Shown: positions 535 through 6,491, counted from the first letter of the stretch. The stretch is DNA of 6,609 bases from a virus (IMGVR_UViG_3300018483_000003:1-6609); one strand, 5' to 3'. The notes: generated from the sequence alone by a model not told the origin. Program-made: numbers and translations.

Positions 535-873
535 CTATGACCATTTTTTATTTGGATTTCGTTGGTGAGCATGATTAACAACTCTGTGCATTACATCCTC
601 ATATTTTTCATCTTCAATTTTTTCGACATCGCGAGGAAATGGTGTTGCTAATGCTTTGTCAACTTTATCCATTGGGTCTTCATTAATCTTATATTCAGGA
701 CCGTCATCTATAGCATTAAATCCAGGTGTTACACCGTTTTTTAATGCATATGCTATCCTCTTTTCCCATCTCGCTATTCTCCTCCTGTCTCGAGATGTAA
801 GACCTCTATCAGATACTTTTCTGTTTTGTCCGCGGTCAGGATTAACATAAATAGTCTTTTTCACCATAAGCAT
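535..873 (-). CDS. Hypothetical highly charged protein (112 aa from ATG 873; 114 aa if the TTG at 879 is used)
   Basis: ORF in the six-frame track. The ATG at 873-871 lies 2 nt after the N stop codon (TGA, 878-876), suggesting translational coupling; no strong SD. Product is rich in R/K/D/E and I recognise no family. AT-rich, and followed directly by a terminator. Confidence 0.55.
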   Translation of the reverse strand: MLMVKKTIYVNPDRGQNRKVSDRGLTSRDRRRIARWEKRIAYALKNGVTPGFNAIDDGPEYKINEDPMDKVDKALATPFPRDVEKIEDEKYEDVMHRVVNHAHQRNPNKKWS

Positions 874-875
874 AC

Positions 876-1181
876 TCAATAAGCACCGTACGGTAGTTTA
901 CTGTACAATTTTATTTTTTGGACTGCATGTATTTTGTTTCCTAATGGGTTTGAATCCTTGTAATAAATACTTCTATTTTTTCGAACGACTTCTTCTTTCT
1001 TCTTGCAGCAAAGGCTTCCTAGTGAAGCTGCTTTGTCTGCTCTGACGCAACCAGAGAGCTTTAGCGCAATTTTTCGCGCTAGTGCTTCATTACTGCGTCG
1101 CTCGGCAATAAGTTCTGCTCTGCGAGCTTTGTAGCGGCTTTTTGCCGTACCTTTGGATTCTTTCCAGACAATGGTTACCAT
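876..1181 (-). CDS. N: N-type transcription antitermination protein (phage-21-like arginine-rich motif)
   Basis: ATG at 1181-1179 with AAGGAG (complement of 1188-1193) 6 nt upstream. The N-terminus MVTIVWKESKGTAKSRYKARRAELIAERR contains the arginine-rich motif I recall for phage 21 N. The gene lies downstream of boxA/boxB elements and a pL-like promoter. The track ORF extends to 1211 but the longer start lacks an RBS. Confidence 0.8.
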   Translation of the reverse strand: MVTIVWKESKGTAKSRYKARRAELIAERRSNEALARKIALKLSGCVRADKAASLGSLCCKKKEEVVRKNRSIYYKDSNPLGNKIHAVQKIKLYSKLPYGAY

Positions 1182-2226: not shown

Positions 2227-2412
2227 ATGTACAAAAAAGATGTTATTGACCACTTCGGAACCCAGCGTGCTGTTGCTAAAGCACTAGGCATTAGCGATGC
2301 AGCAGTCTCTCAGTGGAAAGAAGTTATCCCAGAGAAAGACGCCTATCGATTGGAAATCGTTACAGCTGGCGCCCTGAAGTATCAAGAAAGTGCTTACCGC
2401 CAAGCGGCATAA
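2227..2412 (+). CDS. cro: Cro repressor (61 aa, P22-Cro-like HTH protein)
   Basis: ATG at 2227 with GGAG (2216-2219) upstream. HTH motif QRAVAKALGISDAAVSQW. The sequence matches, from memory, P22 Cro almost exactly. First gene rightward of pR. Confidence 0.9.
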   Translation: MYKKDVIDHFGTQRAVAKALGISDAAVSQWKEVIPEKDAYRLEIVTAGALKYQESAYRQAA

Positions 2413-2509: not shown

Positions 2510-2550
2510 ATATAGGAAAATTAACAAATGGCACAAGCAAGCTACAGCAA
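2510..2550 (-). promoter_or_regulatory. pRE-like CII-activated promoter (TTGC-N6-TTGC motif inside the cII 5' end)
   Basis: Plus strand has GCAA(2537-2540)-N6-GCAA(2547-2550), which is TTGC-N6-TTGC on the minus strand, the CII tetramer site architecture of lambda pRE. A -10-like TATATT follows on the minus strand (about 2512-2517). The position overlapping the cII start matches lambda. Confidence 0.55.
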
Positions 2551-2824
2551 GCCAACACAGCGAGAAATTGATCGCGCTGAAACTGATTTACTCATCAACC
2601 TGTCAACGCTTACCCAGCGCGGTCTGGCAAAGATGATTGGCTGTCATGAATCGAAGATAAGCAGAACGGACTGGAGATTTATTGCTTCGGTTCTGTGTGC
2701 TTTCGGAATGGCATCAGACATCAGTCCGATTAGCAGGGCTTTTAAGTATGCGCTTGATGGACTCACAAAGAAAAAATCCCCGGCTGCCACCGAGGATTCT
2801 GAGCAAATTGATATGCAATTCTGA
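2528..2824 (+). CDS. cII: CII-like transcriptional activator (98 aa)
   Basis: Sits between nutR and the replication genes. The C-terminus KKKSPAATEDSEQIDMQF resembles the lambda CII C-terminus as I recall it (KKRPAATERSEQIQMEF). The central region is HTH-like and the pRE motif is embedded in its 5' end. Confidence 0.75.
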   Translation: MAQASYSKPTQREIDRAETDLLINLSTLTQRGLAKMIGCHESKISRTDWRFIASVLCAFGMASDISPISRAFKYALDGLTKKKSPAATEDSEQIDMQF

Positions 2825-2856
2825 GGTAATTACTGGATCAATCCACAGGAGTAATT

Positions 2857-3003
2857 ATGACAAAACAACTCAGTCCTTACCAGGACAAAATTCACAAACA
2901 CATACTACGTGATCGCTTCCTGTCCAGCTTCAAGCAGCCTGGTCGATTTCGGGCTGAGTTGGAAAAGGTGAAGCTGATGCAGAAGGAGAAAGGTCATGAG
3001 TAA
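2857..3003 (+). CDS. Possible small basic protein (48 aa) between cII and the O-like gene
   Basis: ATG at 2857 with GGAG (2848-2851) 5 nt upstream. Product [48 protein letters not shown]. Its stop (3001-3003) overlaps the O-like start (2996) as ATGAGTAA. Not in the supplied track because of its length. I recall an orf48 annotated at this position in P22, which if correct supports it. Confidence 0.4.
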
Positions 3004-3895
3004 CATATCTAATCTAGCCGAAGCCAGAGAGGCCAGAAGGCTACAACAACCGCATCAAAGCAGCGGTAAGGGGTATGCCTTGCTGCACCGTAAAATTATG
3101 GATGTGCCGTTTTACAAGGACGCAGAAGCAGCGCATCTGTGGGTTCACTTAATCCTCAAAGCAAAGCATACGCCTGAGTATGTAATGACTGACGCAGGAG
3201 AAATTCTGGTAGGCAGAGGGAAGCTACTTGGCGGTAGAAACTCTCTGGCGTTTGAAACAGGACTCAAACCAGATCGCGTTCAGTACCTGCTTAGAAAGTT
3301 CAAAAAACTCGGCATGATTGACTGGGTTTCACACGGTAAATTCTCAGTTTTCTCGGTAGAGAAATATGACGATTATCAGTCAAATTTTGTACCAGCAGAT
3401 TACCAGCAAATTACCACCTCAAAGCCAGCAATACCAATGCCTGCAAGCAATACTGTACCAGCAGATTACCAGCAAATTACCACAGATAAAGAATATAATA
3501 ATATTATCTCTAATACTGACGTATTAGAGAGTGCCACAGCAGACAAAAAGTCTGACAAGAAAAAACCTTCCGTTAGCTGTCAGGATGTTGTCGATGCTTA
3601 CCACGAAATCCTTCCTGAAGCGCCAAGAATCCGCGCACTGAATGACAAGCGTAAAAACCAGATCCGAACGTTCTGGCGCAAAGCCGGAGTGATAACCCGC
3701 CAGCTTGACGGGCATGGGTTCACGATGCAGGACTGGAGAAATTATTTGAGCTACGTAGGCGAAAATTGCCGATGGATGTTCGAAGAGCGCCCAAACCATC
3801 AACGCGGAACCGTCTGGCACAAAAAGGGATTTGATTTCCTGCTTAACGACAATACCTACCTGAAAGTTCGTGAGGGTGAACACGATGACCGATAA
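2996..3895 (+). CDS. Replication initiation protein (lambda O / P22 gp18 analogue) with DnaT-like C-terminal domain
   Basis: 299-aa ORF with AAGGAG (2983-2988) 7 nt upstream. It occupies the O position directly upstream of a DnaB-family helicase and contains internal iterons plus an AT-rich tract. The C-terminal region ([17 protein letters not shown]...WRKAGV) resembles DnaT/primosomal-type loader domains as far as I can recall. Confidence 0.8.
3389..3530. repeat. Iteron-like direct repeats plus AT-rich tract inside the O-like gene (putative ori)
   Basis: An identical 29-bp sequence GTACCAGCAGATTACCAGCAAATTACCAC occurs at 3389-3417 and 3455-3483. Each copy holds three TACCA(G/C) motifs at 11-bp phasing (3390, 3401, 3412 and 3456, 3467, 3478). 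An AT-rich tract follows at 3484-3530 (GATAAAGAATATAATAATATTATCTCTAATACTGACGTATTAGAG). Confidence 0.6.
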
Positions 3896-5321
3896 TTTTT
3901 ATGCGCCGCCCCATAGCATCGAGGCAGAGCAGGCGGTGATTGGTGGATTGCTTCTGGATGATGACAGCAGTGAGCGCGTCCAGAAAGTTCTGGCGATGCT
4001 GAAGCCTGATTCATTTTACGGCCGACCACACAAAATCCTTTTCGAAGAAATAACCAGAATGCACCGGGAGCAAAAGCCAGTAGATGGCCTGACGCTTTTC
4101 GATGAACTGGAGCGTAAATCGTTAACGGCGTCTGTTGGCGGTTTTGCTTATATCGCTGAGATCGCAAAAAACACGCCAAGCGCAGCAAACATCGTTGCCT
4201 ATGCAATGCAGGTTCGTGAAACCGCAATGGAACGCTACGCCATAAACCGCATGACTGAAGCGACGGAATTGCTCTATTCCCGCAACGGAATGACTGCAAC
4301 GCAGAAGTACGAAGCTATTCAGGCGATTTTCACGCAACTGACAGACCATGCAAAAACCGGATCGCGTCGCGGCCTTCGCTCATTTGGTGAGGTCATGGAA
4401 GACTGGGTTAGCGACCTTGAGAAGCGATTTGACCCGTCAGGCGAACAACGAGGAATGAGCACGGGGATCCCATCGCTGGACAGGATGCTGTCACCGAAAG
4501 GTCTGGTGAAAGGCTCTCTGTTTGTCATTGGCGCTCGCCCTAAGATGGGGAAAACGACGCTATACAGCCAGATGGCAATCAACTGTGCAGTGCATGAGAA
4601 AAAGCCTGCTCTGATGTTCAGCCTTGAAATGCCAGGTGACCAGATACTGGAAAAACTGGTAGGGCAGAAGTCAGGTGTTAACCCGAATATTTTTTACCTT
4701 CCGGCGACAAATGACGCTGATGACGGCTATCAGGGTGATTACGATGGTGACTTCAACAGGGCGATCGAAACAGCCAATCGCTTGAGTGAAATCGACATGC
4801 TTTACATCGACGACACGCCGGGATTATCTCTGGCTCAAATCGTCAGCGAAAGCCGTCGAATCAAGCGAGAAAAAGGATGTGTTGGCATGATTCTGGTCGA
4901 TTACCTGACACTAATGACCGCTGAAAAGGCCGATCGCAACGACCTTGCTTACGGCATGATCACCAAAGGACTGAAGAACCTTGCCAAAGAGCTTGATTGC
5001 GTTGTTGTGCTTCTGACGCAGCTTAACCGCGCATTGGAAAGCCGAACCAATAAACGCCCATTACCAAGTGACTCGCGAGATACAGGGCAGATTGAACAGG
5101 ATTGCGATTATTGGGTTGGGATCCATCGGGAAGGTGCTTTTGATGACAGCGTTCCTCCTGGTGAAACCGAACTAATCCTTCGCCTCAATCGTCATGGCAA
5201 TACCGGCACGGTGTATTGCATACAGGCAAATGGCGCTATTTATGACACAGACCAACAGTCTGCTGAAATGCGCCGCCGTGAACGCGAGGAACCGCAGTCC
5301 AAGAAGAAAGGAGGATTCTGA
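3885..5321 (+). CDS. DnaB-family replicative DNA helicase (478 aa)
   Basis: ATG at 3885 with GAGGGTG (3872-3878) upstream, overlapping the O-like stop by 11 nt. N-terminal DnaB signature PHSIEAEQAVIGGLLLD, Walker A GARPKMGKTT and Walker B-like MILVDYLTLM. GTG codons at 3870 and 3876 are possible alternative starts. Confidence 0.9.
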   Translation: MTDNFYAPPHSIEAEQAVIGGLLLDDDSSERVQKVLAMLKPDSFYGRPHKILFEEITRMHREQKPVDGLTLFDELERKSLTASVGGFAYIAEIAKNTPSAANIVAYAMQVRETAMERYAINRMTEATELLYSRNGMTATQKYEAIQAIFTQLTDHAKTGSRRGLRSFGEVMEDWVSDLEKRFDPSGEQRGMSTGIPSLDRMLSPKGLVKGSLFVIGARPKMGKTTLYSQMAINCAVHEKKPALMFSLEMPGDQILEKLVGQKSGVNPNIFYLPATNDADDGYQGDYDGDFNRAIETANRLSEIDMLYIDDTPGLSLAQIVSESRRIKREKGCVGMILVDYLTLMTAEKADRNDLAYGMITKGLKNLAKELDCVVVLLTQLNRALESRTNKRPLPSDSRDTGQIEQDCDYWVGIHREGAFDDSVPPGETELILRLNRHGNTGTVYCIQANGAIYDTDQQSAEMRRREREEPQSKKKGGF

Positions 5322-5811: not shown

Positions 5812-6078
5812 ATGGACGAATCAAGAAAGCAGTTTGAAGAATGGTTTGAAAATTACACCGGATGTGATCCTAAAAATAAAATATACGCCAATATGGTTGA
5901 GATGTATTGGCAAGCGTGGCAGGCATCGCGAGCAGCTATCGAGATTGAGTGTCCTGGAAAAAGAGAGCGTGAGGCATTTTCTACCGATTTCGAGGATGGG
6001 GTCACATTTGGTTATAACGACGCAATTAGTGAATGCGAAGGACGGATTCGCGCTGCTGGAGTCAAAGTGAAGGAGTGA
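5812..6078 (+). CDS. Hypothetical acidic protein (88 aa)
   Basis: ATG at 5812 directly after the previous stop; the track uses GTG at 5788. Product MDESRKQFEEWFENYTGCDPKNKIYANMVEMYWQAWQ...; Trp- and acid-rich. The stop is followed by the ninB RBS. Confidence 0.55.
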   Translation: MDESRKQFEEWFENYTGCDPKNKIYANMVEMYWQAWQASRAAIEIECPGKREREAFSTDFEDGVTFGYNDAISECEGRIRAAGVKVKE

Positions 6079-6080
6079 CG

Positions 6081-6491
6081 ATGAAGCAAACAATCTTCCT
6101 CCGAACTAAGCAACAACAGCAAGCCGCAATCAACGCCATCCTCGCAACACCACTCGATAAAGACAAGCCAGTCACCATCCGCATTACTGACTACAAGCGC
6201 AACCTTGACCAGAACGCAAAATTTCACGCGATGCTGGCGGATATCGCTCGTCAGGTTCAATGGTGCGATAAATGGCTAAAACCAGAACAATGGAAGGTTT
6301 TGTTGATCAGCGGTCATGCAGTGGCAACAAAACAGGAAGCTGATGTTTTGCCCGGCCTTGAAGGCGAATACGTCAACATTCGCGAAAGCAGCGCGCAGAT
6401 GAGTGTGAAGCGTATGGCAAGTCTAATTGAGTACACGACAGCATGGGCTATTGGTCAGGGTGTCAGATTTACCGACAGGAGGTACGAATGA
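6081..6491 (+). CDS. ninB: NinB (Orf-family recombination mediator, 136 aa)
   Basis: ATG at 6081 with AAGGAG (6070-6075) 5 nt upstream. Motifs [33 protein letters not shown] resemble lambda NinB/Orf as I recall it. The track's upstream extension (6033) overlaps the preceding gene and lacks an RBS. Confidence 0.85.

Follow-up and report, generated by a model that had tools for sequence, protein, structure and literature searches.

In phage lambda (NC_001416), the replication origin (ori-lambda) is located inside the 900-nt initiator gene O, between the parts encoding a DNA-binding N-terminal domain and a partner-recruiting C-terminal domain, and consists of four iterons (gene offset 349–433) followed by an A+T-rich tract of about 40 bp and an inverted repeat with 12-bp arms and a 4-nt gap. 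These iterons are 18–20 bp long, dyad-symmetric, and 20–24 bp apart, and they pair with one another as inverted repeats. Lambda O shows the classical module split, in which the N domain acts with the origin as one specificity unit and the C domain with its partner, a helicase or a loader, as another, the partner in lambda being P, the loader of host DnaB. Iterons also occur at plasmid origins with winged-helix Rep initiators (RepA/pi/RepE), where they are typically 17–22 bp long and accompanied by DnaA boxes. Bacillus phage SPP1, which comes from a different host lineage than the locus studied here, carries oriL within gene 38; oriL is made up of direct repeats and an A+T-rich unwinding element and is bound by the gene's own product, the replisome organiser gp38. 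The phage has a DnaB-family helicase, a loader encoded separately as gp39, and, in addition to oriL, the origin oriR (PMC6316719).

Closer to the present locus, two misc_binding features with O protein as the bound partner, “ori iteron 1” and “ori iteron 2”, are predictive annotations in the record of VT2-Sakai (AP000422; prophage Sp5 of O157:H7 Sakai), while the Sf6 and phage L records label homologous repeat regions as putative origins. For phage L, six 11-bp repeats (TGTCCAACGGA) within gene 18 have been described as the likely origin, and, according to genetics cited in the same work, the replication region can be swapped in full but not in parts (PMC8022706). Our literature search found no experimental test of an HK022-type origin (footprint, ori-plasmid test, or replication-bubble map).

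Here, we analyzed a 6,609-nt stretch of viral DNA (IMGVR_UViG_3300018483_000003:1-6609; the whole stretch is hereafter called the window), in which a first-pass annotation, made from the sequence alone, had proposed a replication origin embedded in the initiator gene. All computational checks, plus the prior AP000422 annotation, supported this proposal, and we estimate a probability of about 85% that the repeat array, situated in the linker-coding part of an O-like gene, serves a lambdoid phage or prophage of the HK022/mEp235 type as its replication origin. The origin is already known, being annotated in public records of the same sequence and described in the literature of a close homologue, and as a discovery it carries little weight: it has been annotated as a putative origin, in a prophage family that is common and includes the Stx2 phage of O157:H7 Sakai. 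Our additions are the synonymous-site constraint, a fixed-length spacer, a compensatory palindrome, a polymorphism of one to four repeat units, and an 11-bp design in distant phages, and these leave the classification unchanged; the conserved inverted repeat, the synonymous-site constraint, and the unit polymorphism are unmentioned in the above records and in PMC8022706. The comparative signatures (synonymous constraint, length-fixed spacer, pairing-preserving palindrome, and whole-unit copy-number variation) are unusually clear, and the locus is valuable as a clear-cut natural case in which the same DNA segment is constrained twice, as a protein linker and as a putative initiator-binding array.

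From its genes (Table 1), the window covers the immunity and replication functions of a lambdoid phage or prophage, and its best whole-window match is phage mEp235 (84% covered, 98.5% identity), followed by HK629 and HK022. The gene at the O position, between cII/orf48 and the gene for a DnaB-type helicase, had been called an O-like initiator in the first pass, and it indeed matched PHROG 345 (“replication initiation O-like”, E 9e-88). Like lambda O, it is 900 nt long; over this full length, DNA identity is 99.4–99.7% to VT2-Sakai, mEp235, and others, while the protein is 99–100% identical to HK022 O and VT2-Sakai O, and O genes with 99–100% identity are also present in Stx1 phages and many others. 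The origin in the HK022, VT2-Sakai, and mEp235 O genes is the same element, with no structural difference, and homologous origins are present in phages L (whose gene 18 is a 65%-identical homologue), ST64T, Sf6, and HK620. The ori region (3300–3620; 321 bp) matched 374 of 5,426 complete E. coli genomes, with at least 80% of the region carried by 227 of the 374. The downstream helicase ORF (Pfam DnaB, E 1.2e-30; DnaB_C, E 2.8e-60), whose start in homologous records is 15 nt further in (window 3885), overlaps the end of the O-like gene with no ORF between the two, whereas SPP1 has its separate loader. The window spans only 6.6 kb, and a second origin, as in SPP1, may exist elsewhere in the genome.

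Table 1 Coordinates of features in the window, with sequence variation in parts of the O-like gene (mean pairwise difference per site among 10 homologues with a TACCAG core)
Feature	Position	Strand	Basis	Variation, all sites	Variation, third codon positions
cI-type repressor	1496–2146	minus			
cro, P22-type	2227–2412				
cII	2528–2824				
orf48	2857–3003				
O-like replication initiator gene (299 aa), containing the putative origin	2996–3895	plus	ORF; PHROG 345 match		
N-terminal winged-helix domain (residues about 30–127), presumed iteron-binding	3083–3376	plus	model, confident	0.174	0.335
Iteron cluster 1, three 11-bp slots TGTACCAGCAG / ATTACCAGCAA / ATTACCACCTC	3388–3420	plus		0.050	0.073
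Spacer, 33 bp (three helical turns)	3421–3453	plus		0.386	0.431
Iteron cluster 2, slots TGTACCAGCAG / ATTACCAGCAA / ATTACCACAGA	3454–3486	plus		0.020	0.020
A+T-rich tract (23 bp, 91% A+T), presumed DNA unwinding element	3484–3506			0.087	0.025
Perfect inverted repeat, 10-bp arms and 4-nt centre, TCTCTAATAC TGAC GTATTAGAGA	3507–3530			0.080	0.000
C-terminal domain (residues about 190–299), presumed helicase-recruiting	3563–3892	plus	pLDDT above 90	0.287	0.464
DnaB-type replicative helicase gene (P / P22 gp12 position)	3870–5321	plus	Pfam DnaB, DnaB_C		
ninB	6033–6491				

A perfect 29-bp duplication had initially been noted in the O-like gene; the exact repeat is real, although it is one base longer, with the 30-bp direct repeat TGTACCAGCAGATTACCAGCAAATTACCAC at 3388–3417 and 3454–3483. 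Its two copies start 66 bp apart, as originally reported, and they are identical in sequence to the two iterons annotated in AP000422 (positions 3393–3422 and 3459–3488 of the VT2-Sakai locus in our set, L001). When two mismatches were allowed, the repeat grew to 35 bp (3383–3417 and 3449–3483), and the 30-bp copy pair is the longest exact repeat in the window, compared with a mean of 12.1 bp and a maximum of 16 bp in shuffled sequences (n = 200). Within this array, the TACCA(G/C) motif recurs at the 11-bp phasing that had been described (starts at 3390, 3401, 3412, 3456, 3467, and 3478, all 2 modulo 11), and six of its ten plus-strand occurrences in the window fall inside one 96-bp stretch. 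The iteron consensus is about WKTACCAGCAR, and the six asymmetric sites form two triplets; with 66 bp (six helical turns) between the triplet starts, all sites face the same way on the helix. The 11-bp sub-repeat (six per origin), rather than the 29/30-bp unit, is the more likely binding unit; the VT2-Sakai record counts two iterons of 30 bp, while the phage L paper, like the present analysis, counts six of 11 bp. The first slot of the spacer (AAAGCCAGCAA, 3421–3431) is a possible degenerate, in-phase fourth iteron, and its xxxGCCAG/xCCAG form is seen in many, although not all, homologues.

These six direct repeats differ from the four longer, dyad-symmetric iterons of lambda, and no inverted repeats were found inside 3388–3486. 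At 3598, TTACCACG shares the phase of the iterons (209 = 19 × 11) and was rejected as an iteron, since phage L, whose iterons are instead GTCCAA, has the same sequence; it belongs to C-domain coding sequence. A search for DnaA boxes (TTWTNCACA, up to one mismatch) found none in 3300–3700, and the eight such sites in the whole window are below the chance mean of 14.7; with the search empty near the origin, a design dependent on host DnaA was rejected. In contrast to iteron plasmid origins, the array of the window lies inside coding sequence and has no DnaA box nearby.

The array is also read as protein, and the repeated 10-residue peptide that had been inferred from the duplication was confirmed at residues 132–141 and 154–163 of the 299-aa product. 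The three sub-repeats of each unit, on the other hand, are read in three different frames (11 mod 3 = 2), so that the 11-bp periodicity leaves no trace in the protein and must be a property of the DNA. An AlphaFold2 model of the initiator, built on an alignment of representative relatives (mean pLDDT 81.6), shows the linker between the N and C domains (residues about 130–190) as disordered, and this stretch corresponds to what the repeats encode, in agreement with their earlier placement in an inter-domain linker. Together, the iterons, the A+T tract, and the inverted repeat encode residues 131–178, wholly inside the disordered stretch.

Downstream of the iterons, the roughly 45-bp AT-rich tract of the first-pass annotation is real (3484–3530; 47 bp, 78.7% A+T) but composite, comprising a shorter A+T-rich tract and the inverted repeat that follows it. 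The resulting order of iterons, A+T-rich tract, and inverted repeat bears out the lambdoid layout that had been proposed, with a tract of 23 bp compared to about 40 bp in lambda and, at the equivalent place, an inverted repeat with 10-bp rather than 12-bp arms. The least stable 30-mer of the window is located here (3486–3515; nearest-neighbour dG −26.4 kcal/mol, compared with a mean of −39.7 and an sd of 3.1), as are the least stable 40-mer and 50-mer, while the next-least-stable 30-mers are all in or beside intergenic or promoter regions. The tract is present in all homologues compared, at 77–95% A+T; excluding Erwinia phage Eho59, where it is 13 bp long with 77% A+T, the range is 81–95% A+T over 21–24 bp.

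The inverted repeat folds as single-strand DNA at −10.1 kcal/mol (z −5.8). Across 90 loci (see below), it occurs in 11 sequence variants, all with perfect 9–11-bp arms, and 9 of the 10 pairs show changes on both sides with no one-sided change. Paired cells make up 97.3% of the alignment, compared to 68% in shuffles, and none of 500 shuffles reached the observed values. The compensatory changes alter the encoded amino acids, indicating that the structure of the inverted repeat is kept at the protein's expense. Selection is thus on its Watson–Crick structure and not on its sequence, and it would probably act as a hairpin or cruciform where the opened region ends. The absence of G-T cells (0 of 110) favours, within a small sample of 11 sequences, a DNA element that pairs on both strands over an RNA stem.

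Comparisons were made with homologous loci, comprising 9 annotated phage loci, 80 IMG/VR loci, and the window (90 loci in total), which collapse to 54 distinct linker regions with whole-protein identities of 35–100%. If the repeats were absent or unphased in homologues, the first-pass reading would have been refuted; instead, all 54 distinct sequences keep 11-bp-phased triplets, followed in every case by an A+T tract and a perfect 9–11-bp inverted repeat. The triplet register is exactly 66 bp, with two loci that differ by whole 66-bp units, and among the 54 distinct sequences no spacer indels were found besides such whole units. In phages L and Sf6, the 3+3 layout, 66-bp register, A+T tract, and inverted repeat are as in the window, with the core GTCCAA instead. 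The unit number varies from one to four: a one-unit variant with three iterons (L047), three-unit variants (L045 and, among the matches listed, 26 protein clusters of 321 aa), and a four-unit variant (one 343-aa cluster, confirmed on its DNA), which alter the linker length in 22-residue steps. Given L047, six sites are not strictly required, unless this prophage is defective.

Substitution patterns within the TACCAG-core homologues (Table 1) separate the array sharply from its surroundings. The iterons vary 8–19 times less than the intervening spacer, and their synonymous sites are 5–20 times less variable than those of flanking coding DNA. Such a spacer, fixed in length and free in sequence between near-constant clusters, is, at the level of sequence comparison, the signature of phased binding sites, and a simple recombination history would not yield this pattern. 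Overall, the comparison of the 90 loci supports a function of the array at the DNA level.

With regard to the initiator protein itself, Pfam and NCBIfam searches with the whole protein and with each domain returned nothing at threshold, a PDB sequence search returned nothing meaningful (one chance hit in the low-complexity linker), and structure-fold matches were to generic winged-helix proteins. Unlike lambda O, the initiator has no match to Phage_rep_O (PF04492), for which the N domain remained without a match even at E up to 10, while against Phage_rep_org_N (PF09681), the family of the N-terminal domain of SPP1-type replisome organisers, the protein scored E 0.097 (13.1 bits; cutoff 23.3). 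The N-domain relatives comprise 4,834 representatives at E up to 1e-3, and among 104 diverse ones profiled against Pfam, PF09681 was found in 20 (best E 7.4e-8) and PF04492 in one (E 7.6e-4); the PHROG relatives are labelled “DnaD-like helicase loader”. Iteron cores fall into five classes (TACCAG, TACCAA, GTCCAA, GTCCAG, and TGCCAA), each limited to one N-domain clade; with the iterons situated within the gene, plain co-inheritance could account for this tracking. We attempted to derive specificity residues in the N domain from class-specific columns, and no assignment was justified, as class and clade are fully confounded.

The modules of the protein and its DNA are split as in classical lambda O. 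Compared with the window, the Sf6 protein has a 100% identical C domain and a 50% identical N domain, and the DNA is 55% identical through the N domain and iterons and 100% and 99% identical from the inverted repeat onward, a jump that indicates a mosaic junction in the A+T tract. In phage Eho59, an N domain and iterons of the same type are joined to a C domain resembling that of lambda O, with a gene for a lambda-P-like loader coming next; this hybrid shows that the C domain is exchangeable with that of lambda. The C domain thus assorts independently of the N domain and iterons.

This anatomy, with its conservation, its modules, and the earlier annotation, suggests a course of initiation in which binding, unwinding, and helicase loading would follow one another as predicted steps. 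By analogy to lambda O at ori-lambda and SPP1 gp38 at oriL, the winged-helix N domain would bind the iterons, probably with one domain per 11-bp site, so that six sites would be filled on one helix face, or seven if the 3421–3431 slot counts. The nucleoprotein complex would then strain the adjacent A+T tract until it opens, the inverted repeat may form a hairpin or cruciform at the bubble edge, and the C domain would bring in the phage DnaB-type helicase encoded by the next gene, there being no lambda-P-type loader present. A phage DnaB-type helicase without a loader would make this a tractable system for understanding how such helicases are loaded.

The same elements might be read in other ways, and the evidence for these was weighed against the origin reading. 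The O-like protein might bind the repeats while the array is mainly regulatory, serving autoregulation of O or helicase expression, or control of copy number and incompatibility through titration or handcuffing, with opening elsewhere. Plasmid iteron arrays have such control roles, the array lies inside the transcription unit, and the one to four units seen among prophages would suit a dosage-type element. We nevertheless consider this improbable, given that the element order is that of ori-lambda, with the repeats directly abutting the window's stability minimum and a conserved inverted repeat, and that the replication module contains no other comparable repeat or A+T-rich element; moreover, a control role would add to the origin role rather than replace it. 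That the repeats instead constitute a peptide module in the flexible linker, acting through its length or as a binding motif with an incidental DNA periodicity, is a reading to which we give very little credence. The duplication is in frame and yields the 10-residue peptide twice, the predicted disorder is typical of repeat-tolerant linkers, and the unit variants change the linker in regular 22-residue steps, but the sub-repeats use all three frames and so do not show in the peptide, the spacer is constant in length and not in sequence, and the 3+3 DNA pattern is shared by clades whose peptides differ. The low variability at synonymous sites of the iterons likewise speaks against a protein-level repeat, and this reading is largely refuted.

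It is also highly improbable, in our assessment, that the hairpin acts in RNA or as an antisense terminator while the repeats are a neutral product of slippage or unequal recombination. The inverted repeat was indeed returned by a scan as a terminator-like site on the minus strand (3530–3507, then a T-rich run), its stem covaries, and the phage L record has software-predicted minus-strand terminators there. However, its stem has only 3 G-C pairs and no G-U or G-T pair in the 110 cells, terminator-like sites in the window are not above shuffles (2 found, 1.4 expected), and no promoter-like site to drive antisense transcription was found in 2800–4000 on either strand. A search of the whole window against Rfam gave no match at E up to 0.1, so that no known RNA family backs a reading at the RNA level, and the strong purifying selection on the iterons is at odds with their neutrality.

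Returning to the origin reading, we also considered whether an HK022-type origin works differently from ori-lambda in biologically relevant ways, which we regard as speculative and rather unlikely as a whole. In its first part, monomeric winged-helix domains, and not dimers, would occupy the asymmetric, head-to-tail 11-bp sites and form a one-sided filament. Further, the inverted repeat, as the only hairpin-forming element, could be a structure-specific entry site for the loader-less DnaB-type helicase, and the number of 66-bp units (1 to 4) could tune initiation strength or incompatibility. Finally, hairpins of palindromic origin repeats have been reported to trigger the OLD and Lamassu defences (preprint 10.64898/2026.07.10.737580), so that the non-palindromic iteron design could represent an escape from origin-sensing immunity. 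The locus could show whether origin architecture affects recognition by such origin-sensing defence systems.

Beyond the lambdoid phages, 11-bp arrays were found just after the N-domain coding part in three distant N-domain relatives. Staphylococcus phage SAP33 has seven tandem 11-mers at this place, the AACCAGCA cores of Pseudomonas phage Orisa01 are spaced 11 and 22 bp apart, and the repeats of a Vibrio phage are likewise 11-bp-periodic. From these sequences, an 11-bp array after the N domain looks like a general trait of the initiator family.

Each 66-bp unit of the origin comprises three iterons and a spacer, and comparison of the window, the homologous loci L047, L045, and L094, and proteins P0001-P0027 revealed that the copy number of this unit differs between natural prophages (see table). 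The four-unit allele was recovered at the DNA level as well, with iterons, A+T tract, and inverted repeat all intact. Within the window, the spacer additionally holds a fourth 11-bp slot, AAAGCCAGCAA, which keeps the iteron phase and is identical to ATTACCAGCAA at 8 of 11 positions; an xCCAG-like sequence is found at this slot in many homologues, though not all, and the slot may represent a degenerate seventh site.

The 11-bp repeat design extends beyond close relatives. Three phages whose initiators are related to the N domain at ~27-31% identity carry 11-bp-periodic direct repeats within their own genes, directly past the part coding for the N domain, and because these distant relatives have them too, 11-bp in-gene iterons look like a general trait of this initiator family.

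Features compared between the window, homologous loci and proteins, and other phages
Feature	Sequence	Coordinates	Strand	Detail
Origin unit	L047			one unit
Origin unit	window	3388-3483		two units
Origin unit	L045			three units
Origin unit	321-aa proteins			three units; 26 clusters
Origin unit	343-aa protein cluster			four units; 35 sequences
Origin unit	L094	1887-2130		four units
Fourth slot	window	3421-3431		11 bp
In-gene repeats	L092, Staphylococcus phage SAP33	1335-1411		11-bp period
In-gene repeats	L091, Pseudomonas phage Orisa01	1028-1153		11-bp period
In-gene repeats	L093, Vibrio phage 1.165.O	1282-1404		11-bp period
Hybrid initiator	L009, Erwinia phage Eho59	986-1936		
A+T tract	window	3484-3506		mosaic junction with Sf6
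orf48	window	2857-3003		48 aa
Nun-annotated ORF	window	535-879	minus	114 aa
Antisense ORF	window	3524-3883	minus	119 aa

The initiator is also exchanged in parts. Eho59 encodes a natural hybrid that combines an N domain of the HK022/L type, with 3+3 iterons (GTGCCAAC/TTGCCATC), and a C domain resembling that of lambda O. The following gene is a lambda-P-like loader, whereas a DnaB-type helicase gene occupies this place in the window. Between the window and Sf6, the mosaic junction falls inside the origin itself, with DNA identity of 55% across the N domain and iterons versus 99-100% from the inverted repeat through the gene end.

A recent preprint (10.64898/2026.07.10.737580) reports binding of the palindromic ori-lambda iterons by the OLD defence system and activation of Lamassu by hairpins in replication origins. 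In contrast to those of ori-lambda, HK022-type iterons are non-palindromic, which might matter for sensing by OLD/Lamassu-like systems.

Among the other ORFs of the window, orf48, situated between cII and O, matches phrog_1913, labelled "tail protein", a label that recurs in several RefSeq phage records; since its place within the replication module is fixed and Pfam assigns it to DUF2740, "tail" is likely a mislabel. The minus-strand 114-aa ORF is annotated as the Nun transcription-termination factor in mEp235 and HK022, which identifies an HK022-like phage as the source. Finally, the 119-aa ORF runs antisense to the region coding for the O C domain. Some records give it as a hypothetical protein (ORF b66 in AP005153), and it probably corresponds to the "HkaW protein" that appears with the HK630 match; the conserved sense frame probably gives rise to this ORF as an artefact.
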